Below, piece by piece: positions 2,364 to 49,590 of a stretch of DNA of 64,000 bases. The DNA comes from a bacterium (GTDB taxonomy: Bacteria; Patescibacteriota; Patescibacteriia; Magasanikbacterales; GWA2-37-8). The translations under genes and the position numbers were made by a program. Location: contig JBDROJ010000023.1 of NCBI GenBank assembly GCA_043810165.1, positions 4,675-68,674 on the forward strand, in the 5' to 3' direction. Position 1 is the stretch's first letter. Every line of letters begins with the position of its first letter. The notes beneath the pieces are model-generated. The model saw nothing but the letters and a program-made list of their open reading frames with translations, searched no databases and was not told the origin of the DNA.

Positions 2364-2435
2364 GCGGGCGTGGTATAATGGCTATTACTCCACCCTTCCA
2401 AGGTGGTTACGCCGGTTCGATTCCGGTCGCCCGCT
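2364..2435 (+). tRNA. tRNA-Gly (anticodon UCC)
   Basis: Hand-folded cloverleaf: acceptor GCGGGCG/CGCCCGC, anticodon stem CCACC/GGTGG with loop CUUCCAA, T-loop TTCGATT. CCA is not encoded. Confidence 0.85.
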
Positions 2436-2623
2436 CAGGACCGAAAAAGCAGTCTGAAATGAGGCTGTTTTTTGCTTGACTAAGCTTAGAATTCCTAGTT
2501 CGCACAAGGCTTTTTTGACCTCTTCTTTTTCTAGGCTATTTTTAAGAACCAAATATGGTTTTTCCAATTGAATAAAGAGTTTTTTGTCCCTGTAAGTAAA
2601 GTTCTTACCAACCAGTTTTTACG

Positions 2624-2941
2624 GTGCAGTATCCAGTTGCTAAAAGTCTGTATGAAACACAGCTATATTGTGATTTCATTATATATCATCCAGAAAAGCA
2701 CGAGAAGTGTTTAATTATTGAATCTAAGTGGCAACAGTCTGCAGGTTCTGTTGATGAAAAATTTCCTTATCTTGTACTTAATATCAGAGAAAGATATCCG
2801 TGTTCAACTATAGTTGTGTTAGATGGAGGTGGTTACAAAAAAGGGGCGGAGAAGTGGTTAAGGGATCAAATTGATGATAAATTAATCCACATATTTAGTA
2901 TGATGGAATTTCAAAAGTGGAGTAATAGTGAGGAGCTGTAA
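2624..2941 (+). CDS. PD-(D/E)xK-like nuclease-fold small protein (105 aa), possibly a truncated remnant
   Basis: D...ESK motif region (CDFIIYHPEKHEKCLIIESKWQQ) fits the PD-(D/E)xK catalytic pattern. Starts with GTG right after an in-frame TAA. Terminator-like hairpin at 2977-3003. Confidence 0.35.
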   Translation: MQYPVAKSLYETQLYCDFIIYHPEKHEKCLIIESKWQQSAGSVDEKFPYLVLNIRERYPCSTIVVLDGGGYKKGAEKWLRDQIDDKLIHIFSMMEFQKWSNSEEL

Positions 2942-2976
2942 TATATAGTGTGACGAGGGTGGGGGCATATTACGAT

Positions 2977-3005
2977 CAGCGTAAAATATCGCTATACTAA
3001 GCGGT
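2977..3005 (+). terminator. terminator hairpin atatcgct-atacta-agcggtat + T-run
   Basis: 8-bp stem with one G-U pair, followed by ttttatttttc. Same hairpin family as 7650-7672. Confidence 0.45.
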
Positions 3006-3055
3006 ATTTTATTTTTCCCGCAAAAGATGATAGAATTGAGATAATAACTATAATT

Positions 3056-4374: not shown

Positions 4375-5235
4375 ATGTTAGATACTATAAAAGGAATAAT
4401 CTTAGACATAGACGGTGTTATCGTGGGTAGTAAAAAAGGAGTTAACTCCCCCGACCCACATCCTGATGTAATCAAAAGATTAAAACAAATAAAAGAAGGT
4501 GGTATTCCGATAAGTCTTTGTACAGCTAAGCCGTATTTTGCTATTGAAAAAATAGTTAGAGAAGCTAATTTGGATAATGTTCATATTGTTAATGGTGGTG
4601 GAGCAATAATGAATCCAATTACTGGCAAGATAGTCAAAACTCACAGTATCGATCAAACTATTTTAAGAAGTATTTTAGAAATGCTTTTAAAAGAAGATGT
4701 TTATACTGAGTTATATACAGTTGAGGATTATTATATCCAGAAAAGCCAGTATCGACATATTACTGATAAACATACTCATGTTTTACAAAGAGAACCAAAA
4801 GTAGTTGAATCTTTACTAGATGAGATTTCTTCTTTAAAAGTAGTTAGGATATTGGCTGTTACTGAAGACAGAGAAGATAGATATATCTTTGAAGATAAAT
4901 TCAAGCCTTTTACCGACAGTCTAAATCTTGGTTGGGGAGTCCACCCAGTAATCCTTCCTTTACAGTTTGGCGGTATTACTCCTAAAGGTATATCTAAAAG
5001 CCATGGAGCGGTTGAGATTGCGGAGAATTTTGGTGTGTCTCTTAACGATATGCTTGGCGTAGGTGATAGCAAACGTGATTGGGAGTTTATAGGGCAATGC
5101 GGATATGGGGCAGCTATGGGAAACGCCAGTCAAGCTTTAAAGGATTTAGTTTTGACCAAAGAGAAGAGTCGTTCATATATCGGCGGTGACGTTGATGAAA
5201 ATGGTATTTTGGAGATATTGGATTATTTTATTTAA
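4375..5235 (+). CDS. HAD-superfamily hydrolase, Cof-type (HAD-IIB) phosphatase
   Basis: N-terminal ILDIDGV (DxD) motif and C-terminal GVGDSKRD...GYGAAMGNA motif, as in Cof/YbiV phosphatases. Confidence 0.75.
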   Translation: MLDTIKGIILDIDGVIVGSKKGVNSPDPHPDVIKRLKQIKEGGIPISLCTAKPYFAIEKIVREANLDNVHIVNGGGAIMNPITGKIVKTHSIDQTILRSILEMLLKEDVYTELYTVEDYYIQKSQYRHITDKHTHVLQREPKVVESLLDEISSLKVVRILAVTEDREDRYIFEDKFKPFTDSLNLGWGVHPVILPLQFGGITPKGISKSHGAVEIAENFGVSLNDMLGVGDSKRDWEFIGQCGYGAAMGNASQALKDLVLTKEKSRSYIGGDVDENGILEILDYFI

Positions 5236-5245
5236 ACTGACGGGC

Positions 5246-5722
5246 ATGGGAGAAATCACCATAAGACAATACAAGGATTCTGACAAGGATAAGATATGGG
5301 ATTTACATATTAAAGTTCTGGAAGACGCTGGTGCGTTGGCTGATAGTGGGCCATGGGATGATGATTTGAAAAATATACAACATGAGTATATTAGTGGTGG
5401 CGGTACTTTTTTAGTAGGTTTATCAGGTGACGAAATAGTGGTGATGGGAGCCTTAAAGGTTGTAGATAATAATAATGTTGAAATAAAAAGGATGAGAGTG
5501 TTACCAAAATATCAGAGAAAAGGTTTGGGTCAGTTAATGTTGGATAAATTAGAAGAGAAAGCCGTTGGTAGTGGTTATAATCAAATTCAGCTAGACACAA
5601 CAGATAAACAAATAGCAGCTCAAAATTTTTATGTTAAAAATGGATACAAAGAAGTGAGCCGTATTAAAGGAAAAAAGTTTGAAAGCATAATTTACAAAAA
5701 GAATTTAGTGGCTGGTATATAG
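5246..5722 (+). CDS. GNAT-family N-acetyltransferase
   Basis: Track ORF 5186..5722 trimmed to the ATG at 5246 (MGEITIRQYK...). Contains the acetyl-CoA-binding motif RVLPKYQRKGLGQLML. Confidence 0.75.
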   Translation: MGEITIRQYKDSDKDKIWDLHIKVLEDAGALADSGPWDDDLKNIQHEYISGGGTFLVGLSGDEIVVMGALKVVDNNNVEIKRMRVLPKYQRKGLGQLMLDKLEEKAVGSGYNQIQLDTTDKQIAAQNFYVKNGYKEVSRIKGKKFESIIYKKNLVAGI

Positions 5723-5810
5723 TGTGGAAGGGGTGTGTACAAAACTAGACTCACCTAACCTTGCACAAATCCCCAACAATCCCAGTTCGCACGTCCTCCA
5801 CTACCCCGCT
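5714..5810 (+). repeat. intergenic repeat family, copy A (~95 bp; contains the 28-mer cagttcgcacgtcctccactaccccgct)
   Basis: Near-identical to 7543-7634 and shares the perfect 28-mer with 6750-6777. Begins at the stop codon of the GNAT gene and is followed by T7. Confidence 0.8.
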
Positions 5811-5854
5811 TTTTTTGATGGACAAACAGGTTAAAATATGCTAAAATAACACAT

Positions 5855-6109
5855 ATGACCATACAGCAATTTATAAAAAAGAGACCATATCTGGTTTGGT
5901 ATACAAAGAATTATGATGAACTCTCTGAAGATGCGATTTTAGAAGCCACTCTTAACTACGGTGATTTTGATGATGTTAAAAAAATGGTAAAAATATTGGG
6001 CATGAGAAAGGCGGCTGATATATTTAAAAAGAAAAATAAACAGAAAAGAAATAATTTCAAACCCCAAGTGTCTCATTATTTTAAATTGTTTTTTAAGCAA
6101 CATGCATAA
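5855..6109 (+). CDS. small protein (84 aa) upstream partner of the AbiEii-like nucleotidyltransferase; putative antitoxin/partner
   Basis: Overlaps the downstream gene by 8 nt (ATGCATAA). No recognisable domain by eye. Confidence 0.45.
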   Translation: MTIQQFIKKRPYLVWYTKNYDELSEDAILEATLNYGDFDDVKKMVKILGMRKAADIFKKKNKQKRNNFKPQVSHYFKLFFKQHA

Positions 6110-6716
6110 AGAAGTATTGAACCAAAAACAAACAGAACTACTACCTTTATTAAAGAAGTTTAATAAAGATTTTGGTTTAGTTGGTGGTACAGCTATCGCC
6201 TTACAACTTGGTCATCGTCAATCAATAGATTTTGATCTGTTTTCTAATAAGCCAATTAAGCCGAGTGATATTCGACGTAAGATAAAAGGAGTTGCTAATA
6301 TAGATAAGGTATTAATTAATGAGAAAGATGAGTATACGGTTATTGTCAATGGGGTAAAAATTACTTTTCTTTTTTATCCATTTAAAATAAAATTTTCTAA
6401 ATCGTTGTCAAATATTATAAAATTACCTGATCTAAAAACATTGGCAGCAATGAAGGCATATGCCCTAGGTAGGCGAGCTAAATGGAAAGATTATGTTGAC
6501 CTATATTTTATTATGAAAGATAAGTATGGTATAAAATCGGTGACGAAAAAGGCCAAACAGATTTTTGAAGAAGAATTTAATGAGAAGATATTTAGAATAC
6601 AATTAAGTTATTTTAAAGATATTGATTATACTGAAAAAGTAGAATATACCAACGATCAGAAAACACCAGATTCAGTTATCAAAAAAGAATTAAAAGATAT
6701 CAGTTTAAAAATTTAA
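6102..6716 (+). CDS. nucleotidyltransferase, AbiEii/AbiGii-toxin-like family (DUF1814-type)
   Basis: GGTAIALQLGHRQSIDFDLF matches the GS...D.D nucleotidyltransferase signature of the AbiEii family. 204 aa. Confidence 0.6.
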   Translation: MHKEVLNQKQTELLPLLKKFNKDFGLVGGTAIALQLGHRQSIDFDLFSNKPIKPSDIRRKIKGVANIDKVLINEKDEYTVIVNGVKITFLFYPFKIKFSKSLSNIIKLPDLKTLAAMKAYALGRRAKWKDYVDLYFIMKDKYGIKSVTKKAKQIFEEEFNEKIFRIQLSYFKDIDYTEKVEYTNDQKTPDSVIKKELKDISLKI

Positions 6717-6729
6717 AGTTCCTAGTACT

Positions 6730-6813
6730 ACACCTATTAGGAACTATTTCAGTTCGCACGTCCTCCACTACCCCGCTCATACGAAAATATAGCTAAAACA
6801 AGCGGTATTTTTT
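6730..6813 (+). repeat. intergenic repeat family, copy B (perfect 28-mer plus terminator-like tail)
   Basis: cagttcgcacgtcctccactaccccgct at 6750-6777, then catacgaaaata...aagcggtattttttt as in copy C. Confidence 0.8.
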
Positions 6814-6900
6814 TAATACCCAGGATCTAGGTATTAGCGTTTTTTGACAAAAGATGGTAATCTATTTTTAGACAATCATTTTGCCTAATGGAGGTGTCAG

Positions 6901-7419
6901 GTGAATAGAAATATTTTGGTGCAGGATGAGAGAAAGGTAAGACGCCTACTTCATCTTTGTAGACTAATGCAGGCGGTGTCTTTTTCAACCAAAGACATAA
7001 ATCATGAATTAGCTCGTAGAGTTGGGTATAAAAATAAGCATACGCTTGTAAATGCTATACGTCTATCTGCTTCATGGCGAAGTGTTGAGGAATTGGATAA
7101 ATATCCTTTCACCAAACCGAGCGATAGATTTATACTCAATACAGATCCCAAGAAAGATCCTGAGAGTGGGGATTATGTCACCGTACATAACTTTGTATGG
7201 AGAGACGAAGCACTTAGAAAAAGTGGTTTCATAAATGAGGAAGGCCAGCCTCTCATAGAACTACCTATTCCGAGCGAGATTGTTACTCACGCAGAAAGAG
7301 TAGCTGGGTGGTTGTACAAAAAAAGTCCTACTTACGTTTTGAATGCATTAATTGGTAATCCAGCAGAAACATTGAGTTTATTGCATGAAATGCGGAAGAG
7401 AGGTAAAAATGAAAGTTGA
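6901..7419 (+). CDS. hypothetical protein (172 aa), GTG start with GGAGG SD
   Basis: Track ORF. ggaggtgtcagGTG. No recognisable domain. Flanked by repeat copies B and C. Confidence 0.5.
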   Translation: MNRNILVQDERKVRRLLHLCRLMQAVSFSTKDINHELARRVGYKNKHTLVNAIRLSASWRSVEELDKYPFTKPSDRFILNTDPKKDPESGDYVTVHNFVWRDEALRKSGFINEEGQPLIELPIPSEIVTHAERVAGWLYKKSPTYVLNALIGNPAETLSLLHEMRKRGKNES

Positions 7420-7420
7420 G

Positions 7421-7530
7421 GAGGTGTCTGAATGTAAAAAATGGGAGGGCAACAAAGACCCGCCCCATGTCTGGTATCGCCAGCACGGGCGGGCAGACAC
7501 ATTTCCACCTAATCAAGGTGTTTTTTTTTA
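7421..7530 (+). ncRNA. GC-rich nested-stem element plus intrinsic terminator (candidate structured RNA or 3' UTR element)
   Basis: Outer stem gtgtctg(7424-7430)/cagacac(7494-7500). Inner stem cccgccc(7459-7465)/gggcggg(7487-7493) enclosing the hairpin ctgg-tatcg-ccag. Then cacct-aatca-aggtg + T9. GC-rich, unlike its surroundings. Confidence 0.4.
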
Positions 7531-7542
7531 ATCTAAAAATAT

Positions 7543-7672
7543 ATAGTGTGGAAGGGGTGTATGTAAAACCAAATTCACCTAACCTTACACAAATTATCCA
7601 TCACCCCAGTTCGCACGTCCTCCACTACCCCGCTCATACGAAAATACCGCTATAATAAGCGGTATTTTTGGT
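7543..7672 (+). repeat. intergenic repeat family, copy C (full length, with terminator hairpin ataccgct-ataataa-gcggtat + T-run)
   Basis: Aligns by eye with copy A over ~95 bp and with copy B over the 28-mer and tail. Confidence 0.8.
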
Positions 7673-7680
7673 TATTGTAG

Positions 7681-8322
7681 CTATAGTTGGTTTATTAGGT
7701 CGTAATTAATTTCTTTAATACTGCTTAACACTCGTGTAGCCAGACTAAAATCATTGTTTTTAGTATGCTTATTGGGGATGGCTATACTTTTCATACCAGC
7801 ACGATGAGCTGCCACTATACCTTTTTGAGCATCTTCTAAAACCAGGCAATTTTTTGGATCTATGTTCAGATCGTTGCTGGCCGTTAAGAATATCTCGGGA
7901 TCAGGTTTGTCTTTAGAAATTTGTTCGGCAGTTACTATAGTTGAAAAGTATTTTTTTAAGTTATTTGAACCTAATACTATATTTACAGCCATTTTTGATG
8001 AGCTGGTAGCTAAACCTAATTCAAATTTTTGCTTCAGCAGTCTAATTGTTTGGCTAACACCTGGAAACAGTCGAGCTTTTTCTTTGAGTATTTTTTTATA
8101 TAATTTCTTTTTTTCTTGGTAAACCATATTTGTATCTAAGTCTATTTTTTCTTGTTTTACGTATTTGTGTACATCTAATCCCTGGGTCGTAAAGTATTTG
8201 TAGAAATTTTTATCGCTTAGTTCAACTCCAAATTTTTTGAGAGTGGTTGTGTAGCAATAACACTGCAAAGGTTCGCTGTCAACGATTAGACCGTCCATGT
8301 CGAATATAATAGCTTTTATCAT
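7681..8322 (-). CDS. HAD-IA family hydrolase (beta-phosphoglucomutase/phosphatase-like)
   Basis: N-terminal IIFDMDGLIVDSE (DxDG) motif and C-terminal LVLEDAQKGIVAAHRAGM, typical of HAD-IA enzymes. Confidence 0.75.
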   Translation of the reverse strand: MIKAIIFDMDGLIVDSEPLQCYCYTTTLKKFGVELSDKNFYKYFTTQGLDVHKYVKQEKIDLDTNMVYQEKKKLYKKILKEKARLFPGVSQTIRLLKQKFELGLATSSSKMAVNIVLGSNNLKKYFSTIVTAEQISKDKPDPEIFLTASNDLNIDPKNCLVLEDAQKGIVAAHRAGMKSIAIPNKHTKNNDFSLATRVLSSIKEINYDLINQL

Positions 8323-8352: not shown

Positions 8353-8616
8353 TTGTATACTATTTTTAAATTACACACAAAATTGACTGCTAATTTTGTT
8401 TGTTTAAAAAGAATTAAGGTTGACGGGATCTCAGTCAGCCAGGTAGCTGATGAGCACGGTATTAGACCAAACACAATTTACACCTGGTTGGCTAAAGGCG
8501 TTAACAACGCACCAACCTGGAGTGAGGTATCTAAATTAAAAAAAGAAAACAAGATGTTATTAGAGCTTGTCGGAGAAATTACTGTTAAACTTAGTCAGTC
8601 CCAAAAAAAGAATTAG
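8353..8616 (+). pseudogene. IS3-family transposase OrfA remnant (HTH domain, N-terminus not conserved)
   Basis: See the mobile element entry. Confidence 0.5.
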
Positions 8617-8618
8617 TT

Positions 8619-9170
8619 ATGAATGGTCCTAACAAGACCAAGCTGGCTGAGATGATGGGAGTTTCAAGACGATTATTGTATTATGACCACAAACAACCAA
8701 ATAAAGATTGGGAGTTAAAGACCAGGATAGAACTAGCCTTGCAAAACCATCCTAGCTATGGACACAAAAGACTAGCCACCTATTTAGGCAGAAACAAAAA
8801 AGCAGTACTAAGAGTGATGAATATGTTTGGCATTAAGCCATACCGACGAAAAGGCAAAAAATACAAGTATATTAAGCTAAAAAAGGATAAGATATTTACC
8901 AACCTGCTTTTTGAAGACAAACCACAGTGTCCCAATCACATCTGGGCTTCTGACTTTACCCACATAGCTAAGTTTAACAATAAGTGGGTTTATCTGGCCA
9001 CTATACTAGATTTATTCACTAGAAAGATTGTAGGTTTTAGTATTCTAATGAATCACAGTAACCAACTGGTTATAGAAGCTTTGCTAATGGCCATATTTAC
9101 AAATAATCTAGCAAGAGTTAATTCAAAGACAGCCCAAATAGGTTGTCTTTTTAGTAACTCCAGCACATGA
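8619..9170 (+). pseudogene. IS3-family transposase OrfB, 3'-truncated (integrase core incomplete)
   Basis: HTH_21-like N-terminus and the first DDE motif region are present; the rest of the catalytic core is missing. Confidence 0.55.
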
Positions 9171-9523: not shown

Positions 9524-9597
9524 GCGGTAGTAGCTCAGTTGGCTAGAGTGTTTCCTTGCCAAGGAAAAGGTCGCCGGTTCGAATCCGGTCTACCGCT
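9524..9597 (+). tRNA. tRNA-Gly (anticodon GCC)
   Basis: Acceptor GCGGTAG/CTACCGC, D-arm TAGCTCAGTTGGCTAGAG, anticodon stem TTTCC/GGAAA with loop TTGCCAA, T-loop GTTCGAATC. Confidence 0.85.
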
Positions 9598-9649
9598 CTT
9601 GTTCTAAATAGGATCTACAAAGCAATTTCTAGTTTAAGATCACAAATAT

Positions 9650-9721
9650 CGCGGGGTAGAGCAATGGCAGCTCGGCGGGCCCATAACCCGCAGGTTCCCG
9701 GTTCGAGTCCGGGCCCCGCAA
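9650..9721 (+). tRNA. initiator tRNA-fMet (anticodon CAU) with the C1:A72 mismatch and three G-C pairs at the base of the anticodon stem
   Basis: CGCGGGG...GGGCCCATAACCCGC...GTTCGAGTCCGGGCCCCGCA+A closely parallels bacterial initiator tRNA. Unpaired C1/A72 and the GGG/CCC anticodon-stem end are the initiator hallmarks. Confidence 0.85.
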
Positions 9722-9722
9722 C

Positions 9723-35406: not shown

Positions 35407-36177
35407 TTATTGTGATGATCGTTGTTGGTATGCTTTCCAGCCAGCCTCACGATATTTTTTTGCTTCGGCTAGTGGGTCGTCAGCTTGATAGATTCCGCGA
35501 CCCACAATGATAATATCACTTCCTTGATTTGTAATGACTTTTTCCGGCGTATTGTATTGTTGACCTAGATCATCTTCTCCGACAGCCATTTTAACTCCGG
35601 GTGTAAAGTTGATAAAACTAGGATCATCAATCAATTTACGCATGGTAATAAAGCCAATCACGAAATCTTTATTGTCCCGGGCCATTTTTAAAGTTTCTTC
35701 AGTATAACTTCCTTTGGCTAGATTGCCTTGAGAACTCATCTCGGCCAAGAGTAATAGTGCTCGTCCTTTGTGCATGCCGACTTCTTTGAGGCCTTCAATA
35801 ATTCCAGGTCCTGGTACTGTATGAGTATTAATGATATGCGACCAATCAGCAATATGATAAATGCCGTCTTGATATTGATGTTTGACTGTATTACCAATAT
35901 CGGCGAATTTACGATCTTCAAATAATAAAAATTCATGTTCTTCAGCCAATCGTTGAAGTTCAATGACCAGATCCATATCAAAGTCTTCAATAATATCAAT
36001 ATGGGTTTTTAGCACGCAAATTTCCGGACCCAAGTCTTGAGCAATTTTAATTAATTCGGATTTGGTTGTAACGTCGGCGGCAATACATAGATTGGTTTGT
36101 TTTTTTTCCATTAAATTAAGAAGAATTTTGGCAGTTTGATTTATGCACTGTTGGGCACGTTCAGCATAAGTGGCCAT
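35407..36177 (-). CDS. pyrF: orotidine 5'-phosphate decarboxylase (long, URA3-like type)
   Basis: [13 protein letters not shown] active-site motif. Confidence 0.9.
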
Positions 36178-36181
36178 AATG

Positions 36182-36787
36182 TTATTTTTTAACTTGATTT
36201 TCTTGAATAAATTTTATGGTGTTGTCATAAGCGATCTGATCAATTTTTTGATTTTCTAATAAAGTGTTTAACAGTTCGGTCATAGTGAATACCGTATGTA
36301 GATAATAGCCCTTATTGGCCAGGTTTTCTTTTCCTCCTTGTTCACGATCCAATAGCACTACGACATCAGTGACTTTTAAGCCCTCATGTTCGGTTGGTTC
36401 TATGGTTTCAATTACACTAGAGCCACTGGTAACCAGATCTTCTATAATTAAACAATTTTGTCCAGGTTCAAATACTCCTTCAATGGCTTTTTTAGTGCCA
36501 TAGTCTTTAACTTCTTTACGGCGCATTACCATTGGCTTGTTATGTTCTAAAGATATGGCTGTGGCAATCGGCAAGGCAGTATATGGCACACCCGAGATTA
36601 GATCAAAATTTAGATTTTTTACTTTTCCCCACATGATTTCTCCTATTGCTTTTAGAATTTCCGGATAAGAAATGGTTACGCGCAGATCAATATATATAGG
36701 CGACATGATTCCGCTCTTGAGTTTGAATTCGCCGAATTTTAAGGCGTTAATTTCATGGAGCTTAAGAATTAGTTCTTTTGTATCCAT
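36182..36787 (-). CDS. pyrE: orotate phosphoribosyltransferase
   Basis: PRPP-binding motif [12 protein letters not shown]. Confidence 0.9.
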
Positions 36788-36798
36788 ATATTTTTTTG

Positions 36799-37614
36799 TT
36801 AGAAGTTAATAATTTTTCCGCTTTTATCACGGTGGTATTTTCCAAATTCAGTTATTTGATTAGCCAGTTCACGTTTAACCACTGGTCCATGTGTACACAT
36901 GCAAATACCCAGAGGATCAACCGCACATTGGCCACAGATGCCGTATCCGCATTTCATATAGCGTTCAATACTAACCTCACAATCCACATCATATTGATTG
37001 CATAAGTCAAGCACTTTTTTTTCCATTAGTTCAGGGCCACAGGTGCAAACCAGAGTTTTTTGATCATTGTTTTCGCATAGTAGAGAATTTAAGATGTCTG
37101 TAACATAACCGTGGTGGCCTTGGCTTCCGTCGTCAGTAGAAATGTGTAGCTTGGTGTTTGGTGTTTTATTAATTTTGTCTTCAAATAATAGCAAGTTTTT
37201 GCTTCGAGCGCCAATTAAAAAATCTATATTAGATCCTTGCTGGGCTACTTGTTCAGATAAATTATTTAGTGGAGCGGCGCCATATCCGCCAGCTACCATA
37301 ATATAGTGTGTGTTAGGTTTGATTGAGAAGTTGGTTCCGTATGGTCCTGTAATACCAGCTCGGTCGCCAACATTCATGTCAAATAGTTTTTCAGTTAAAG
37401 GTCCTCGTTTAAAAATAGTCAAACCAAATTTTTCGCCGTCATCGTGAGCGATAGAAAAAGGTTTTTGGTCTATTCCAGGTATCCAGAGCATTACAAATTG
37501 GCCAGGCTGGCTTTTTAATTGGTAATCAAAATAAAAAGTTTTGACTTGGGGATTTTCGTCAACTATCTCAGTAATTTTTATGTGTTTTGGTTGGTCCATA
37601 TCACTTGTGTGCAC
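36799..37614 (-). CDS. pyrK: dihydroorotate dehydrogenase electron-transfer subunit
   Basis: FAD/NAD-binding fold plus a C-terminal 2Fe-2S cysteine cluster (CGYGICGQC). Confidence 0.85.
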   Translation of the reverse strand: MHTSDMDQPKHIKITEIVDENPQVKTFYFDYQLKSQPGQFVMLWIPGIDQKPFSIAHDDGEKFGLTIFKRGPLTEKLFDMNVGDRAGITGPYGTNFSIKPNTHYIMVAGGYGAAPLNNLSEQVAQQGSNIDFLIGARSKNLLLFEDKINKTPNTKLHISTDDGSQGHHGYVTDILNSLLCENNDQKTLVCTCGPELMEKKVLDLCNQYDVDCEVSIERYMKCGYGICGQCAVDPLGICMCTHGPVVKRELANQITEFGKYHRDKSGKIINF

Positions 37615-38515
37615 AGCCTCTTATTTCATCTAAATTACCTATTCCTTCTTTTTTCATGATTTCTTGCATCTCATTGGTTATTTTTTTAAACACATCTTCG
37701 CCACGGAAATACACAGCTGAACCAACGCCTAATAGAGTTGCGCCAGCCATGATCATGGCTAGAGCATCTTCGCCGGTGGTGATACCCCCGGTGCCGATGA
37801 TAGGGATTTTGACAGATTGATAAATACTATAGACACAGTTCAAAGCGATTGGGAATAAGGCTGGTCCAGAAACACCGCCTTGTTTGTTGTGTAGTACGGG
37901 TCGTCGGCTATGGATATCAATACTTATGCCACTGATTGTGTTAACGGCCACAATTCCATCGGCTCCAGCAGATTCAGCGGCCTTAGCGATTTCAGTTATA
38001 TTCCAGGCATTGGGTGAAAGTTTAGTTAATACTGGTACAGTGGATTTTTCTTTGACTTTTTTTGTAATTGTTTCAACCGCTTCAACCGAATAGGCAAATG
38101 GTTTGCCAAATTCTTTCATTACATTGGGGCAGGAAATATTCACTTCCAAAAAATCAATCGGTGCCTGACAAATTTTTTCTGCTGTCTCGCCAAATTCGTC
38201 AAAACTACCAGCAAAAATACTGCCGATCAATGGTGCGTTGCAAACCTGTTTGAATTTTTCCAATTCAGGCAAAACATTATCAACTCCTGGGTTGGATAGG
38301 CCAACTGCATTAATAAAATAATGTTCAGTTCCCATCATGGTGGGGTTGGGGTGGCCGGGGCGCGTATCTTTGGAAACTGATTTGATGGTAATACCGCCAC
38401 AACCGTTTTTAACTGCGTTTTTCATGCAAGCAGAAGTCACACCAAGAATTCCCGAAGCTAAAACAACGGGATTATCAAATTTTTTGCCTAGAAATGTTGT
38501 TTGTAGCATAGACAC
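37601..38515 (-). CDS. pyrD: dihydroorotate dehydrogenase catalytic subunit (class 1B)
   Basis: TIM-barrel DHODH motifs (GLSNPG, active-site Cys in NISCPN). Confidence 0.9.
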   Translation of the reverse strand: MSMLQTTFLGKKFDNPVVLASGILGVTSACMKNAVKNGCGGITIKSVSKDTRPGHPNPTMMGTEHYFINAVGLSNPGVDNVLPELEKFKQVCNAPLIGSIFAGSFDEFGETAEKICQAPIDFLEVNISCPNVMKEFGKPFAYSVEAVETITKKVKEKSTVPVLTKLSPNAWNITEIAKAAESAGADGIVAVNTISGISIDIHSRRPVLHNKQGGVSGPALFPIALNCVYSIYQSVKIPIIGTGGITTGEDALAMIMAGATLLGVGSAVYFRGEDVFKKITNEMQEIMKKEGIGNLDEIRGCAHK

Positions 38516-39472
38516 CTATTGTACCATATTTTCTTTTCCTAGCAACCACATTATTATGCCTTTTTGCGCGTGCATGCGATTTTCAGCTTGGTCAAAGATT
38601 ACTGAATTGGGATGATGAACAGCACTTTTGGTAATTTCATAACCAATATGACAAGGCATGCAGTGCATTATTTTAGCCTGCGGGGCATATTTTTCAATCA
38701 GTTCAGTGTTCAATTGGTAAGGCATAAATTTTGCTTTTCTTTGTGCAAATTCCGTTTGTTTTTCCGGTCTTACCTGCCCGTCAGCAAAAAATTCCATGTC
38801 CATCCAAGTATCAGTATGTATGTAATCAGCTCCGGTTAGAGCTTCTTCTAGGTCTAAATTTTTAGTGACGAGTCCTGTACTTTCTGCCTGTTGATCTAAT
38901 TCAACATCAATACTTGGTTGATTAATTTCCGGCGCTACTATATGAATTTTGATGCCTAGTTTAGTGCACATTAGTTTTAATGTATTGGATACATTATTTT
39001 CAATACCTAACCAAACAACCTTTTTGATGTTCTCTACGCCATTAGAATTTTCAATCATGGTTAGAAGATCGCTTAAAGCTTGAGCCGGATGATATTTTTC
39101 ACTGCAAGCATCAATTACAGGTATTTGATTTTGCGAAGCCGCTAATTCAACGTCATCTGCCTTCATGGCTCTAAACATTAGTATATGTCCGAAACGCATA
39201 ACCGCTTTGATCTCATCGTCAAAGTCAGTTAGAGAAAACTGCGTAGTTTTTGAATCCACAAAAATGGCGTGTCCTCCCAGCTCGGTCATGCCAGTTTCAA
39301 AAGATAATCTAGTTCTTGTAGAACTTTTTTGGAATAACATTACCATTGTTTGGTTGGGTAGATAATTTGTTAGTTCGCCGGCTGTCCGTTTAGCCTTAAT
39401 CTTTTGGGCTACATCCAAAATTTTCAAGATTTCCTCTTTGCTTTGCTCCTTGAGCGAAATGAGATGTCTCAT
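38516..39472 (-). CDS. argF: ornithine carbamoyltransferase-like transcarbamylase, embedded in the pyr cluster
   Basis: STRTR carbamoyl-phosphate motif and an HCMPCH motif resembling the OTCase HCLP (versus HPLP in ATCase). A separate bona fide pyrB is at 41208..42131. Confidence 0.55.
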   Translation of the reverse strand: MRHLISLKEQSKEEILKILDVAQKIKAKRTAGELTNYLPNQTMVMLFQKSSTRTRLSFETGMTELGGHAIFVDSKTTQFSLTDFDDEIKAVMRFGHILMFRAMKADDVELAASQNQIPVIDACSEKYHPAQALSDLLTMIENSNGVENIKKVVWLGIENNVSNTLKLMCTKLGIKIHIVAPEINQPSIDVELDQQAESTGLVTKNLDLEEALTGADYIHTDTWMDMEFFADGQVRPEKQTEFAQRKAKFMPYQLNTELIEKYAPQAKIMHCMPCHIGYEITKSAVHHPNSVIFDQAENRMHAQKGIIMWLLGKENMVQ

Positions 39473-39488
39473 ATGATATATTTAATTA

Positions 39489-40694
39489 TTAACATTTATA
39501 TAATTTATTATTTAAAACAGTGTAAACTGGCCAACCAGTTAATTCCCATCCATGGAATGGAGACCAACCACATTTGGTTTTTAAATTTTTGTTTTCTACT
39601 TTTTTAACTAGATTTAAGTCCACGATTACCTTGTCGTTATTATTAGGTAGATTGAATATCTTTTGTATATTCGTTCTAGTTAATTTTATTATTTTTTCTA
39701 AACTGATCTTATTCTGGCTATGGGCATTTAATAATAATGGTAACAGTGTTTCTATTCCTGGCACTCCAGACGGGGATTGTGGATATGGTTTGGCTTTTTC
39801 TTTTAAACTATGAGGCGCATGATCAGTGCCAATTGTATCAATTACACCATCACCAATGGCCTGCCACAAGGCCCGTTGGTCTTCTAATGTACGTACAGGC
39901 GGGTTCATTTGTGCTTTGGTGCCCAACTGATCATAATCATCCTCTGTTAAAAATAAGTGATGCGGAGTAACCTCGGCGTATACTTCAATGCCACGATTTT
40001 TAGCTTGTTTAATAATTTCAATTTCTTCTTTTGTGTTTATATGACAAATATACAATTTAGTTCCATATTTTTCAGCCAGTTCAACGGCTTGTTTAACTGC
40101 TTTAGTAGCTGCTTGGCGGTCACGAATTTTCGAATGCATTTTTACGTTATTAGAATCAGTATAATTCTCTTGAATAATAGATTCGTCCTCAGCGTGTACA
40201 GCCACAACCAGATCTGACGCAGTCGCAGCTTTAAACACTTTAGCTTGGTCCTCTTTTTTATTTACTAATAGGTTGCCAGTGCTAGATCCCATAAATAATT
40301 TTATACCAATGATTTCATTTTTTAACAAGCTATATGTATCGTGGTTGTTTGGGGTTGCGCCAAAGTATAAATAAAAATTTAGAGGCATGTTTACCTCCTT
40401 CAATTGTTTGTTGATGATTACTTGTTTACTTTTAAGGCTATCCGAATCAATCGTGTCTGGAGAGTTGTTTGGCATGTCAAAAACAGTAGTAATACCACCA
40501 GCAATTGCTGTTCGAGCTCCGGTTTGCCAATCTTCTTTGTATTCTTGTCCGGGTGTGCGAAAATGAACATGTGGATCAATTAAAGCTGGTAAGATTGTTA
40601 AGGCCGAGCCGTTTATTGTTTGGTGTTTATCATCGTCGATAGTGTAATCGAGCTTTCCTCCAGTAGCGGTATTTAGTTTCTCAATACGAGTCAT
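39489..40694 (-). CDS. pyrC: dihydroorotase (amidohydrolase family)
   Basis: DPHVHFR and DHAPH metal-binding motifs. Confidence 0.85.
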   Translation of the reverse strand: MTRIEKLNTATGGKLDYTIDDDKHQTINGSALTILPALIDPHVHFRTPGQEYKEDWQTGARTAIAGGITTVFDMPNNSPDTIDSDSLKSKQVIINKQLKEVNMPLNFYLYFGATPNNHDTYSLLKNEIIGIKLFMGSSTGNLLVNKKEDQAKVFKAATASDLVVAVHAEDESIIQENYTDSNNVKMHSKIRDRQAATKAVKQAVELAEKYGTKLYICHINTKEEIEIIKQAKNRGIEVYAEVTPHHLFLTEDDYDQLGTKAQMNPPVRTLEDQRALWQAIGDGVIDTIGTDHAPHSLKEKAKPYPQSPSGVPGIETLLPLLLNAHSQNKISLEKIIKLTRTNIQKIFNLPNNNDKVIVDLNLVKKVENKNLKTKCGWSPFHGWELTGWPVYTVLNNKLYKC

Positions 40695-40695
40695 A

Positions 40696-41160
40696 TTAAT
40701 TATTTTTGTACTCCCTGATTTCTTTCTGCATGAATATTTTTTCGCAATAATGACACTGTAATTTCATATGATCACCATTAGCGATAACTTTAAAGACTGT
40801 CTCAGTATCATCATTGTTTGTAATACATTTAGGGTTGGGGCAAACAACTACATGCTTAATTTTTTTTGGGATTTTTACTTGACTTTTTTTAATTACTTCG
40901 TAATTTCTAATAATATTAATAGTGGCATTAGGTGCCAAAATAGCTACTCGATCAACTTCTTCATCAGTCAATTCACGTTCTTCTACCTTGATTATATCTT
41001 TGACTTTATCACTTTTTTGGCTGTGTAAATTTAATCCAACCGTGACTGTCTTGCTAAGCATTGGCAGATTTAAAATACGAATTATTTTTAAAGCGTTCTC
41101 AGTATAAATATGATCAATGACCGTACCATCTTTGATGGCTGAAACTAATAGAGTTTTCAT
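40696..41160 (-). CDS. pyrI: aspartate carbamoyltransferase regulatory subunit
   Basis: C-terminal Zn-binding Cys cluster (CPNPKC...CHYC). Confidence 0.85.
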   Translation of the reverse strand: MKTLLVSAIKDGTVIDHIYTENALKIIRILNLPMLSKTVTVGLNLHSQKSDKVKDIIKVEERELTDEEVDRVAILAPNATINIIRNYEVIKKSQVKIPKKIKHVVVCPNPKCITNNDDTETVFKVIANGDHMKLQCHYCEKIFMQKEIREYKNN

Positions 41161-41207
41161 AAGCGAATGGAATGAATAAGATTATACCTTGGCATAATCT
41201 TAATTAA

Positions 41208-42131
41208 TTATTGTAATTTACCTAATACCAAACCCAGCAAGGCTTGTCTGACATATAAACCATTTTCAGCTTGTTCAAAGTAGTAAGCGTGACTTGTTGT
41301 ATCCACATCAGTAGAAATTTCATTAACTCGAGGTAGGGGGTGCATGATTTTTAAATTAGATTTAGCATTTTTAAGCATATCAGCTTCAAGTATAAACACA
41401 TTTTTGATGCGTTCGTATTCCATGGGGTCAGCAAAACGCTCTTTTTGTATACGGGTCATATAGATAATGTCAGTTTTATCAGTAATGTCCTCTATTTTTT
41501 CATGTAGGGTAAAATTGATCCCTTTTTCTTTTAGTTCGTTGCAGATATATTCTGGCATTTGTAGTTCTTTAGGAGCAACAAAGTATAATTGACAATTAAA
41601 ATGTGTTAGAGCTTGGGCCAAAGAGTGGACGGTACGGCCATATTTTAAATCACCTACCAAGGCAATGTGTAATCCATCAATTTTTTGTTGGCATTCTTGG
41701 ATAGTGAACAGATCAAGTAAAGTTTGGGTGGGGTGCTGGTTGGCTCCGTCTCCGCCGTTAATGATTGGTTTATCTGTGGATTCAGTTGCGCGTCTGGCCG
41801 AACCCTCGATTGGATGGCGCATGGCGATCACGTCCACATATTGACCAATGATTCTCATAGAATCATAAATAGATTCTCCTTTTTTAGCTGAAGTAACTCC
41901 GGCTTGAGCAAAACCCACTACACTTCCACCCAATCTCTCCATAGCAGTTTCAAATGATAGACGCGTGCGCGTGGATGGTTCAAAAAAACAACTGCCCATT
42001 ACCTTGTTTTGTAGCAATTGCGGTTGTGGGGTCTGTTTAAGTATTTTAGCCTGCCCCAATATGTGTAGGATCTCATTTTTATTTAGATCCTTGATGGAAA
42101 CGATATCTTTGTTGGTAAAATCCATATGCAA
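41208..42131 (-). CDS. pyrB: aspartate carbamoyltransferase catalytic subunit
   Basis: STRTR, HPTQ and HPLP motifs. Confidence 0.9.
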
Positions 42132-42149
42132 GATAGATGAATTAATAAA

Positions 42150-42186
42150 TTTTTTTTAAAAAAATAGCCACTCCTCACGGAGTGGC
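42150..42186 (-). terminator. intrinsic terminator gccactcc-gtga-ggagtggc + U-run, 25 nt upstream of the pyrB start and downstream of argH
   Basis: 8-bp GC-rich stem followed on the minus strand by tatttttttaaaaaaaa. Confidence 0.65.
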
Positions 42187-42192
42187 CGATTG

Positions 42193-42234
42193 CTAATTAA
42201 GATTTTCAATTGTGTATAGGTAGGTATATTTCAT
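42193..42234 (-). CDS. candidate pyr leader mini-ORF MKYTYLYTIENLN (13 aa), essentially leaderless
   Basis: Hand-translated. ATG is ~14 nt downstream of a TATACT -10. Stop codon is 6 nt before the terminator stem. Confidence 0.25.
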   Translation of the reverse strand: MKYTYLYTIENLN

Positions 42235-42248
42235 AGGCTCTGTTACAG

Positions 42249-42277
42249 AGTATAGCAGAGTACCTGGCAGTGGTCAA
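42249..42277 (-). promoter_or_regulatory. sigma70-type promoter TTGACC - 17 nt - TATACT upstream of the pyr leader/pyrB, with a DnaA box at 42287-42295 just upstream
   Basis: -35 is the reverse complement of 42272-42277; -10 of 42249-42254. Confidence 0.5.
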
Positions 42278-42286
42278 ATGTCGACT

Positions 42287-42295
42287 TATCCACAT
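42287..42295 (+). other. perfect DnaA box TTATCCACA
   Basis: Exact 9-mer. Confidence 0.5.
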
Positions 42296-42312
42296 ATTTT
42301 GGTCACTCTTTG

Positions 42313-43611
42313 TTATTTTAATTTTTGTATTTGATGCTCATAGTGTTCAAGATTTAAATTCCCAGGTGCCCCTAGGCTGATTTTTGTTTTAATATTTTGT
42401 TCCATATTAATATTTGTACTATCTAATTGGTCCATGGCTTGGCAGTAAGCATCTCGAAAAGATAGTTTTTTTTGTATCACCATATCATTGGCAATATCAG
42501 CAGTAAAGATCTCTTTGCTGATAGTTTTTTTGATTTTTTCTTGATTGGGTTTAGTGCCTTGTATAAATAACTGAACTATGAGCAGGCTTTTTTTAATTAT
42601 ATCCACACTTTCTATTAGTGGTTTTTTAATTAATTGCAAATCTCGATGATAGCCCGAGGTGGTATGGGTAACTAGATGTTTAATAGTATTCTGGTGTGAA
42701 ATCATCACACTGATATTGGCTCGCAGTATCTCCATGGCGTCAAGATTTTTCTTTTGTGGCATAATACTAGAACCAGTAGTGAACTGTTCTTCTATAGTAA
42801 AGAAACCAAATTCTTGGCTGGTGAATAAAATCAAATCATTGGCGAATTTACTCAGAGTCATCATAACTTGTAAGAGACCTTCTAAAAATAGGCTTTCAAA
42901 TTTACCTCGACTGTTCTGGCAATACAAGCTATTGATTTGAATATTTTTGAATCCTAATTCAGCTGTGGTCAAATGTCTGTCTATGGGTATGGATGTACCA
43001 AAGCCGGCTGCGCTACCCAAGGGATTTTTATCGATGGCATCAAAAATATCTGTCAGGGTTTTGTGGTCGTCTAATAGGCTTTCTACAAAACTGGCATAGT
43101 AATGTCCCAGACTGCTTAACATGGCCTGTTGGGTATGAGAATAGCCGGGCAGAGGAATATTTTTGTATAGTTTAGCTTTCTTTAGAAACATTTCAGCAGT
43201 TTTTAATACTTCAGCATTGGTATTTTTTATCATGTCTTTCATATATAATCTTAAGGCAACTAATACCTGATCATTTCTACTTCGGCCAGTGTGGATTTTT
43301 TTGCCAACCACTCCTAGTTTGTCAGTTAGGTATTTTTCAATAACCGTATGACAATCTTCGTCAGCCAGAGCAATTACTATCTCATCATTTTTGAATTTTT
43401 GTTCAAGTTCAGTTAAACCAGAACACAACTGTTCCAATTCATTTTTATCTAATATTCCGGCCTGTTCCAGTGCTTTGGCATGAGCTTGGCTAGCTTGAAT
43501 ATCATAGGTCATTAATTCTTTGTCCAATATATGGTCTTGGCCAACCGTGTATTGTTCAACCAATGGGTGAAGTTTGGTTTGGTTTTTTTGCCACAGTTTT
43601 TGTTTGTTCAT
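42313..43611 (-). CDS. argH: argininosuccinate lyase
   Basis: Fumarase/aspartase-family signature GRSRNDQV. Confidence 0.9.
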   Translation of the reverse strand: MNKQKLWQKNQTKLHPLVEQYTVGQDHILDKELMTYDIQASQAHAKALEQAGILDKNELEQLCSGLTELEQKFKNDEIVIALADEDCHTVIEKYLTDKLGVVGKKIHTGRSRNDQVLVALRLYMKDMIKNTNAEVLKTAEMFLKKAKLYKNIPLPGYSHTQQAMLSSLGHYYASFVESLLDDHKTLTDIFDAIDKNPLGSAAGFGTSIPIDRHLTTAELGFKNIQINSLYCQNSRGKFESLFLEGLLQVMMTLSKFANDLILFTSQEFGFFTIEEQFTTGSSIMPQKKNLDAMEILRANISVMISHQNTIKHLVTHTTSGYHRDLQLIKKPLIESVDIIKKSLLIVQLFIQGTKPNQEKIKKTISKEIFTADIANDMVIQKKLSFRDAYCQAMDQLDSTNINMEQNIKTKISLGAPGNLNLEHYEHQIQKLK

Positions 43612-48717: not shown

Positions 48718-49590
48718 TTATACAGCAATATCAAATTTAATTCTAGGATAACTTTCATATCCAATTATTTTTGTATCCTGGGCAGTCCAATCAAAAATTG
48801 AAGTAAAGTTTTCTGTGATGATTTGGGGTAGGGGATATTTGTTTGGATCACGGCTTAGTTGTTCTTTTGCGCCGTCTATGTGATTAGAATAGATATGAGT
48901 GTCACCCAAGAATCCGACTAGACGACCTTCTTTAAAACCGGTTTCTTTGGCTAATAAATGTAAGAGAGTGGCGTAGCTGGCAATATTAAAAGGTAAACCT
49001 AGCATGACATCAACCGAACGCTGGTTCCAGAGCAAGTTTAGTTTTTCATTGCTAACAACTACTTGGAATTGAAAATGGCAAGGCGGAAGAGCCATGTCTT
49101 GTAATTGGCAGGGATTCCAAGCTGATACAATCATACGGCGGTCAAATGGATCGGTTTTTAGATTGTGAATTAGTTTTTTTAATTGATCCACGCCTTGGCT
49201 AGTATAATCTGTATCGTAATTTTTGTAATCAGCATTAAAATGCCGCCATTGAAATCCATAAATCGGGCCTAGGTCTCTTTCTTCAGACATTTTCTTTTTA
49301 GTTTCTTGGTCATGACCATAAGGGACTTTTTTGGGACTGCACCATTCATCCCAAATGTGATTTTTATGATCTTTTAACCATTGTTTGTCGGTTATGCCTT
49401 GAATAAAAAATTCTAATTCTGTAGTTATTAAACGAAAAGGCATTTTTTTGGTAGTGAGCAAGGGGAATCCATCAGACATTTCGTGTTCAAATATAACACC
49501 GGCAATGGATTGAGTGCCAGTGCCGGTACGGTCTTGTTTTTTTATTCCCTTATCCAGGATTTTTTCTACTATTTTTAAGTAGTTCAGCAT
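48718..49590 (-). CDS. thyA: thymidylate synthase (ThyA type)
   Basis: Active-site LPPCH motif and GxPFNIASY motif. Confidence 0.92.
   Translation of the reverse strand: MLNYLKIVEKILDKGIKKQDRTGTGTQSIAGVIFEHEMSDGFPLLTTKKMPFRLITTELEFFIQGITDKQWLKDHKNHIWDEWCSPKKVPYGHDQETKKKMSEERDLGPIYGFQWRHFNADYKNYDTDYTSQGVDQLKKLIHNLKTDPFDRRMIVSAWNPCQLQDMALPPCHFQFQVVVSNEKLNLLWNQRSVDVMLGLPFNIASYATLLHLLAKETGFKEGRLVGFLGDTHIYSNHIDGAKEQLSRDPNKYPLPQIITENFTSIFDWTAQDTKIIGYESYPRIKFDIAV

Follow-up and report, generated by a model that had tools for sequence, protein, structure and literature searches.

A three-copy repeat that probably marks two cassettes inserted into one intergenic spacer of a Magasanikbacterales genome

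We analyzed a 64,000-nucleotide stretch of DNA (hereafter, the window) from a bacterium of the order Magasanikbacterales, phylum Patescibacteriota (GenBank assembly GCA_043810165.1, contig JBDROJ010000023.1, positions 4,675 to 68,674 of the forward strand), in which a repeat occurs in three copies between a GNAT acetyltransferase gene (5246-5722, + strand) and a convergent HAD phosphatase gene (7681-8322, - strand). The arrangement of the copies suggests, with a probability that we put at roughly 0.6, that the repeat marks two cassettes inserted in one spacer, with imperfect copies of the spacer on either side of each, and that the repeats are insertion scars and not dedicated recombination sites. 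The first cassette (unit 1) carries a putative toxin-antitoxin pair and the second (unit 2) an orphan gene. The arrangement is best seen as a further example of an insertion mode that is known but has drawn little notice, one in which the cargo is new and a single site was hit twice.

The repeat comprises a 67-nt left arm (X), a 28-nt core (O, CAGTTCGCACGTCCTCCACTACCCCGCT) and a 35-nt right arm (W) that ends in a hairpin and a T-run. O occurs three times, always on the + strand, at 5783-5810, 6750-6777 and 7607-7634, and no further copy was found in the 64 kb at up to 3 mismatches (0.00 expected from shuffled sequence). Copy A (5716-5810, +) consists of X (5716-5782) followed by O (5783-5810), copy B (6750-6812, +) consists of O (6750-6777) followed by W with a degraded hairpin, and copy C (7540-7669, +) is a complete X-O-W with an intact terminator hairpin. 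A and B are therefore complementary halves, X-O and O-W, of the arrangement that C holds entire, and joining the copies at O leaves one spacer between two convergent genes. Copy A starts 4 nt ahead of the GNAT stop codon (TAG, 5720-5722), which thus falls within its first 7 nt, and the strong 13-bp hairpin of copy C (7639-7670) lies 11 nt from the HAD stop codon. Weak X-like similarity in front of copy B reaches back to ~6728.

Copies A and C can be aligned over 95 nt without a gap (85% identity), with 53 of 67 positions of the X arm identical (79%), and the W arms of B and C agree at 31 of 35 positions (89%). The longest identical run between A and C was 30 nt (run-length test, p=0.044) and that between B and C was 40 nt (p=0.0003). 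The repeat bracketing unit 1 measures 36 nt (5775-5810 and 6742-6777, 33/36 identical) and the one bracketing unit 2 measures 84-85 nt (82-83% identity). A sequence-only reading of this region had reported the three positions of the 28-mer, near identity of A and C over about 95 bp, a copy A seated on the GNAT stop codon and repeats that delimit unit 1 (genes at 5855-6716) and unit 2 (6901-7419 plus a tail), and our analysis bore out each of these points. It had also described a terminator tail common to B and C; the tail itself held up, but its hairpin (ACCGCT/AGCGGT followed by a T-run) is intact in C only, since the 5' arm in B carries two mismatches.

Unit 1 (5811-6749, +, 939 bp) consists of a promoter-like site, two genes and a hairpin. 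The promoter-like site, TGGACA-17-TAAAAT with a TG upstream (5819-5847, +), matches at 10 of 12 positions and is conserved in homologous cassettes from other genomes (loci L001, L005 and L007). Because it ends 8 nt before the ATG at 5855, the transcript of unit 1 is predicted to be leaderless. The first gene (5855-6109, +) encodes the predicted partner of 84 aa, and the second (6102-6716, +), which overlaps it by 8 nt, encodes a nucleotidyltransferase of the MenT/AbiEii family of 204 aa and is followed by the hairpin that closes the unit (6717-6745, +). The GC content of unit 1 is 28.4%, compared with a window mean of 37.3%, which places it in the lowest 2% of 900-bp windows. The earlier view of this unit as cassette-like is borne out: it is compact, self-promoted, atypical in GC and found in unrelated contexts elsewhere.

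The 204-aa protein matched Pfam PF08843 (AbiEii) with E=1.5e-11 (45.1 bits, cut-off 22.5) and the PADLOC AbiEii model with 2.5e-7. An AlphaFold2 (AF2) model, with a predicted local distance difference test score (pLDDT) of 93.6, was compared by Foldseek and matched JHP933, MenT3, MenT1 and MenT4 with E values of 1.6e-5 to 3e-4. Since a confident model matches these four structures, the protein is a predicted toxin of the MenT/AbiEii nucleotidyltransferase type, in agreement with the AbiEii-like nucleotidyltransferase named in the sequence-only reading. The layout of the pair is closest to that of MenAT1, in which a small upstream partner gene likewise overlaps the toxin gene by 8 nt. Unlike in AbiE, the 84-aa partner matches no AbiEi family (COG5340, winged-helix), and the toxin is short. 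The partner also had no match in Pfam, NCBIfam or PDB, and its PADLOC match to PycC (E=0.016) was non-significant; it is nevertheless kept as an ORF (open reading frame) of 84-92 aa in homologous loci, and in size it presumably resembles the small MenA1 partner. For neither protein did a sequence search return a solved relative. The best homologue of the predicted toxin is 75% identical, versus 51% for that of the flanking HAD protein. The predicted toxin has a very large family, most members of which come from Patescibacteria, and a search of viral contigs for relatives of the cassette was negative.

Unit 2 (6813-7539, +, 727 bp) contains an orphan ORF of 172 aa (6901-7419, +), preceded by a GGAGGTG ribosome-binding site, and a GC-rich structured tail (7420-7530, +) with a terminator at 7506-7520 followed by a run of nine T residues. 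A search of 5.8 billion proteins with the orphan protein returned only the protein itself, and its structure model (pLDDT 49.8) was too low in confidence and was not used. For the GC-rich tail, no Rfam family was found either at the gathering threshold or at E<=10.

The promoter and two-gene module of unit 1 (~0.9 kb) was also found in unrelated contexts in other uncultivated bacteria, at loci that are given L numbers here. Nucleotide homology between genomes was limited to ~880-920 nt, as between window positions 5797-6716 and L001, or between L028 (5726-6605) and L025; the latter homology falls exactly between the two L028 repeats. In another pair, L059 and L072, the module is 89% identical and the flanks are unrelated. 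We compared the 200 nt upstream with the 200 nt downstream of the module, counting alignments with a score of at least 16, and observed that direct repeats bracket the module in 12 of 76 loci, versus 4 of 801 shifted controls (p=1e-10). A wider repeat test gave 11 of 69 loci versus 11 of 587 controls, and most of the positives among these controls were repeats inside repetitive genes. Bracketing was therefore seen in ~16% of 76 independent loci, mostly from candidate-phyla bacteria.

The flanking repeats in these loci are 33-121 nt long and, as read from the alignments, ~80-93% identical, and they are unrelated between genomes. The promoter of the cassette comes directly after the end of the upstream copy, and the downstream copy starts 4-31 nt past the toxin stop codon in most repeat-positive loci and 85-314 nt past it in L020, L005, L066 and L086. 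Several of these repeats come from host genes: the 5' end of rpiB, covering its first 15 codons, in L033; the 3' end (last codons) of an FtsX/MacB permease gene in L020; the 3' end of a KhpA-like gene in L029; the 3' end of a MazE-like gene in L001, where a direct repeat of 121 nt (93% identity) flanks the module on both sides; and a 990-aa ORF in L028. In each host-gene case, the neighboring gene stays intact despite the duplication. In these loci, the repeats are clearly host gene ends. In the window, the evidence on whether the repeat is local target sequence or a dispersed repeat is mixed: there is no other O in 64 kb, but one diverged relative of the repeat (element D, below) lies 2.7 kb upstream. 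Furthermore, L005 is a second three-repeat, two-cassette array, in which three copies of GTTATCCACAAAAACTGTC... (5551-7977) delimit an AbiEii-type pair and a ParE-type pair.

Three side observations were made on these loci. In L005, the genes at 5194-5532 and 7667-7852 have their promoter and 5' end in common. A DnaA-box-like sequence, TTATCCAC, or a near match to it, lies in or beside the repeats in L001 (5685 and 6730), L005 (7952), L028 (6656) and the window (7596); its background rate is ~0.07 per kb. L062 (4500-5646), compared with L061 (5590-5642), contains an extra ~1.09 kb with a 363-aa gene, bracketed by a ~53-nt imperfect repeat over the ribosome-binding site and start region; L061 looks like an empty site, and L062 looks like a case of the same insertion mode with cargo other than a toxin-antitoxin module. 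Metagenome contigs of ~900 bp were considered as cassette-bounded strain variants, and the three such contigs proved to be random fragments.

The original locus probably consisted of the GNAT stop codon (+), a ~130-nt X-O-W spacer with W as a bidirectional terminator, and the HAD stop codon (-). Two self-contained units would have entered this spacer, namely the MenT/AbiEii-type pair with its own promoter and the orphan gene with its structured 3' tail. The first insertion would have duplicated ~36-50 nt around O, and the second would have duplicated either O-W or the whole of X-O-W; copy A would then represent the left half of the original spacer. As to how the duplications arose, we favor a route in which incoming circular or linear DNA with short homology to the target is integrated by host recombination, and a crossover in the longest identical block (O, 28-40 nt) would leave two hybrid copies. 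Exchange at O between A and B, and between B and C, would bring back a single spacer. A toxin-antitoxin cargo would keep the repeat-flanked state, in that cells deleting the cassette would be poisoned. Two results lend weak support to the host-recombination route. First, the homology of the cassette with L001 reaches 14 nt into O (TCCACTACCCCGCT versus TCCACCCCCTCAC). Second, in a codon-position test of the coding repeats, 11 of 21 differences between copies fell at third positions (p=0.056).

Previously, restriction-modification systems were shown to insert with long (>30 bp), variable and imperfect target duplications and without mobility genes (Nobusato et al. 2000, Gene 259:99; Furuta, Abe & Kobayashi 2010, PMC2853133; PMC3874152). 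The published duplications often overlap gene 3' ends, as in cases with 46-bp repeats overlapping 15 bp and 2 bp of gene ends, and come mostly from naturally competent species (PMC2853133; PMC3874152). The present structure resembles these insertions in its small units without a mobility gene, its long, variable, imperfect and probably local repeats, its overlap with a gene 3' end and its addiction-type cargo. By the criteria of Furuta et al. 2010, both bracketing repeats exceed 30 bp, and units 1 and 2 lie below 20 kb and contain ORFs (the 84-aa, AbiEii-family and orphan ORFs) without a mobility domain. It differs in carrying a nucleotidyltransferase pair and an orphan gene, so that there is no cargo-encoded DNA cleavage; in that two insertions on one target gave a three-copy array; and in that its repeats are more diverged than in most published restriction-modification cases, save for the identical 28-nt core.

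Double-strand cleavage by the cargo has been proposed as the common cause of long target duplication (PMC2853133). Because the same signature surrounds a nucleotidyltransferase module, in ~16% of 76 loci, a cargo nuclease is disfavored as the shared cause, and the signature around a toxin that is not a nuclease points to host recombination and retention by addiction instead. In the literature searched, we found no description of long target duplication for toxin-antitoxin modules. Such insertion would offer these modules a simple route to move without mobile-element machinery. In addition, repeated hits on one spacer can mimic a cassette array, which matters for the annotation of integron-like structures in metagenome-assembled genomes.

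Several observations weigh against the interpretation of the repeats as insertion scars. O is identical in all three copies and the arms differ, which also fits a site-specific core or selection on O. Element D, 2.7 kb upstream, indicates that the spacer type is not unique in this region of the genome. Unit 2 lacks a recognizable toxin, and the proposed link to addiction is carried over from the known behavior of addiction modules. The third-position lean is a weak test of the route through donor/recipient hybrids. Finally, no empty site was found for this genome, which has no close relative in the databases, or for L001, for which the search returned its own contig alone. Database look-ups of proteins encoded in the window likewise gave no entries.

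Among the alternative explanations, the one that survives best, although we consider it unlikely, is that X-O-W is a small functional family, either a small RNA gene or a terminator module, that was duplicated for itself, with the cassettes lying between pre-existing copies. As a small RNA, it would have a 5' hairpin, a C-rich single-stranded O with CCUCC/CCCC motifs, and a terminator. Consistent with this idea, A and C differ chiefly in the hairpin loop and the linker and preserve the stems and O, element D has only the 5' end and the terminator in common with the other copies, as expected of a paralogous family with a variable interior, and copy C folds as RNA with z=-4.2. However, the fold signal in C comes mostly from the terminator, and copy A gave z=+0.55. 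Moreover, X-O-W had no Rfam match even at E<=10, and the sequence upstream of copy C showed no convincing promoter on the + strand. Independent duplication also fails to account for a foreign cassette that sits precisely between two complementary halves, A and B, and this split geometry was seen again around the cassette in other genomes, where ordinary coding sequence forms the repeat.

Two features of the - strand were observed in or near this copy: a promoter-like site inside copy C (7567..7538, 10/12) and a terminator-like hairpin at 7466-7446. Together (window 7437-7567) they could produce a ~95-nt antisense transcript of the structured tail that lies just downstream of the orphan ORF.

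A further alternative, to which we assign a rather low probability, holds that O is the core of a site-specific recombination site with X and W as its arms and with a recombinase encoded elsewhere, as in integron-like or IMEX-like capture of circular cassettes. In its favor, all three copies keep the 28-nt block unchanged while their arms have diverged, two different cassettes lie at the same place, and the homology with L001 that extends 14 nt into O suggests that part of O may have traveled with the cassette. The locus also resembles integron attC cassettes, including the toxin-antitoxin cassettes of chromosomal integrons, in its ~1-kb units in one orientation, its repeats of ~60-130 nt and its cargo of a toxin-antitoxin module and an orphan. 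It likewise resembles integrative elements in tRNA or small-RNA genes, with an identical core, diverged arms and complementary half-sites astride an insert; but such elements carry an integrase, and here none lies in or beside the inserts, which are <1 kb, and O was not found to be part of a tRNA, a tmRNA or an Rfam family.

Unlike integrons, the window offers no IntI, no attC-type palindrome and no GTTRRRY. No tyrosine or serine recombinase domain was found in the 29 ORFs of the window that were tested; only truncated IS3 fragments were present. The attC imperfect palindrome (R''-L''/L'-R') was absent: folded as single-stranded DNA, copies A (z=+0.55/+0.95) and B (z=-1.46/-0.98) were no better than shuffles, O is not palindromic and is unpaired in all folds, and only the terminator hairpin of C is structured. 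GTTRRRY was also absent from the junctions, which read ...CCCCGCT/TTTTTTG and ...ACTATTT/CAGTTCGCA; GTTCGCA does not fit the motif. Furthermore, unit 1 brings a promoter of its own, neither A nor B is more than a half-site, and in homologous loci the repeat is specific to the genome and derived from the host, so that homologous cassettes are flanked by unrelated host coding sequence with no common motif. An exact scan for the 23-mer core of O gave no match in genome, metagenome and viral collections, and an nhmmer profile of A, B and C, run against 90 loci, gave no match outside the window and, apart from the three copies, detected only element D inside it. The sequence-only reading had likened the region to cassette arrays with attC-like or REP/BIME-like recombination sites (repetitive extragenic palindromes and bacterial interspersed mosaic elements) and had suggested folding the repeat; the cassette-like units stand, but the folds, the junctions, the lack of a recombinase and the promoter of unit 1 speak against attC-like sites.

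The 28-nt length of the core also led us to consider a dif/Xer site, which was rejected because the arms are not palindromic and contain no XerD-arm motif. An assembly artefact is also improbable: the arms differ from copy to copy, and at 28-40 nt the identical blocks fall short of the k-mers commonly used in assembly.

We give little credence to a more elaborate process, in which X-O-W would serve as a landing pad for integrase-independent or trans-acting capture of cassettes in uncultivated low-GC bacteria, with self-promoted defense or addiction cassettes stacked at a terminator spacer and O as the obligatory exchange point. If this were true, each genome would build its own integron-like array from its own local repeat.

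Finally, it is very improbable that the repeat is a dispersed intergenic element, whether REP/BIME-like or like a miniature inverted-repeat transposable element: it is intergenic, lies at gene ends, exceeds its surroundings in GC and has four related copies within 5 kb, but all copies fall at 2.9-7.7 kb with none in the other ~56 kb of the window, which also leaves the REP/BIME-like reading suggested earlier without support, and there are no terminal inverted repeats, no palindromic unit and no RAYT or IS200-type gene among the ORFs tested.

Element D (2942-3015, +), the fourth of these copies, is a diverged short relative of the repeat that holds the X 5' end and a W-type terminator hairpin without O. 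It begins with the X start TATATAGTGTG..., followed by a GC-rich stretch and the hairpin CGCTATACTAAGCGGTATTTT. The first 11 nt of X are matched exactly, as are 16 of the first 20, and the W hairpin is matched at 20 of 21 positions. Element D directly follows the stop codon of a PD-(D/E)XK ORF (2624-2941) and possibly represents an earlier copy of that type of spacer. This ORF, of 105 aa, comes after a tRNA-Gly(tcc) gene (window 2364-2941 for both) and matches positions 40-143 of 145 of PD-(D/E)XK_11; it appears to be truncated at its N-terminus. Farther along, at 9524-9722, are a tRNA-Met gene and a second tRNA-Gly gene (gcc), and the stretch from one tRNA cluster to the other resembles a variable island.

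Just past the HAD gene, two adjoining ORFs at 8353-9170 encode an IS3-type HTH_Tnp_1 domain and a truncated rve domain (positions 2-61 of 102), and this segment is a decayed insertion sequence. Three patches at 600-1200, 1400-1600 and 2000-2200 have a GC content of 49-59%, in a window of 37% GC; no credible ORFs were found in them and no Rfam match at E<=1, and they could be unknown structured RNA or foreign DNA. A tandem 99-nt repeat in two copies (51073-51251, 95% identity over 80 nt) lies inside a - strand ORF (49597-52464). The segments at 35407-43611 and 48718-49590 contain pyrimidine synthesis genes and thymidylate synthase; the pyrimidine set comprises two OTCace-family carbamoyltransferases (aspartate/ornithine type), an amidohydrolase, dihydroorotate dehydrogenase with its electron-transfer subunit, and orotidine monophosphate decarboxylase. 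Such genes would be unexpected in a typical reduced candidate-phyla bacterium, should the organism be one.

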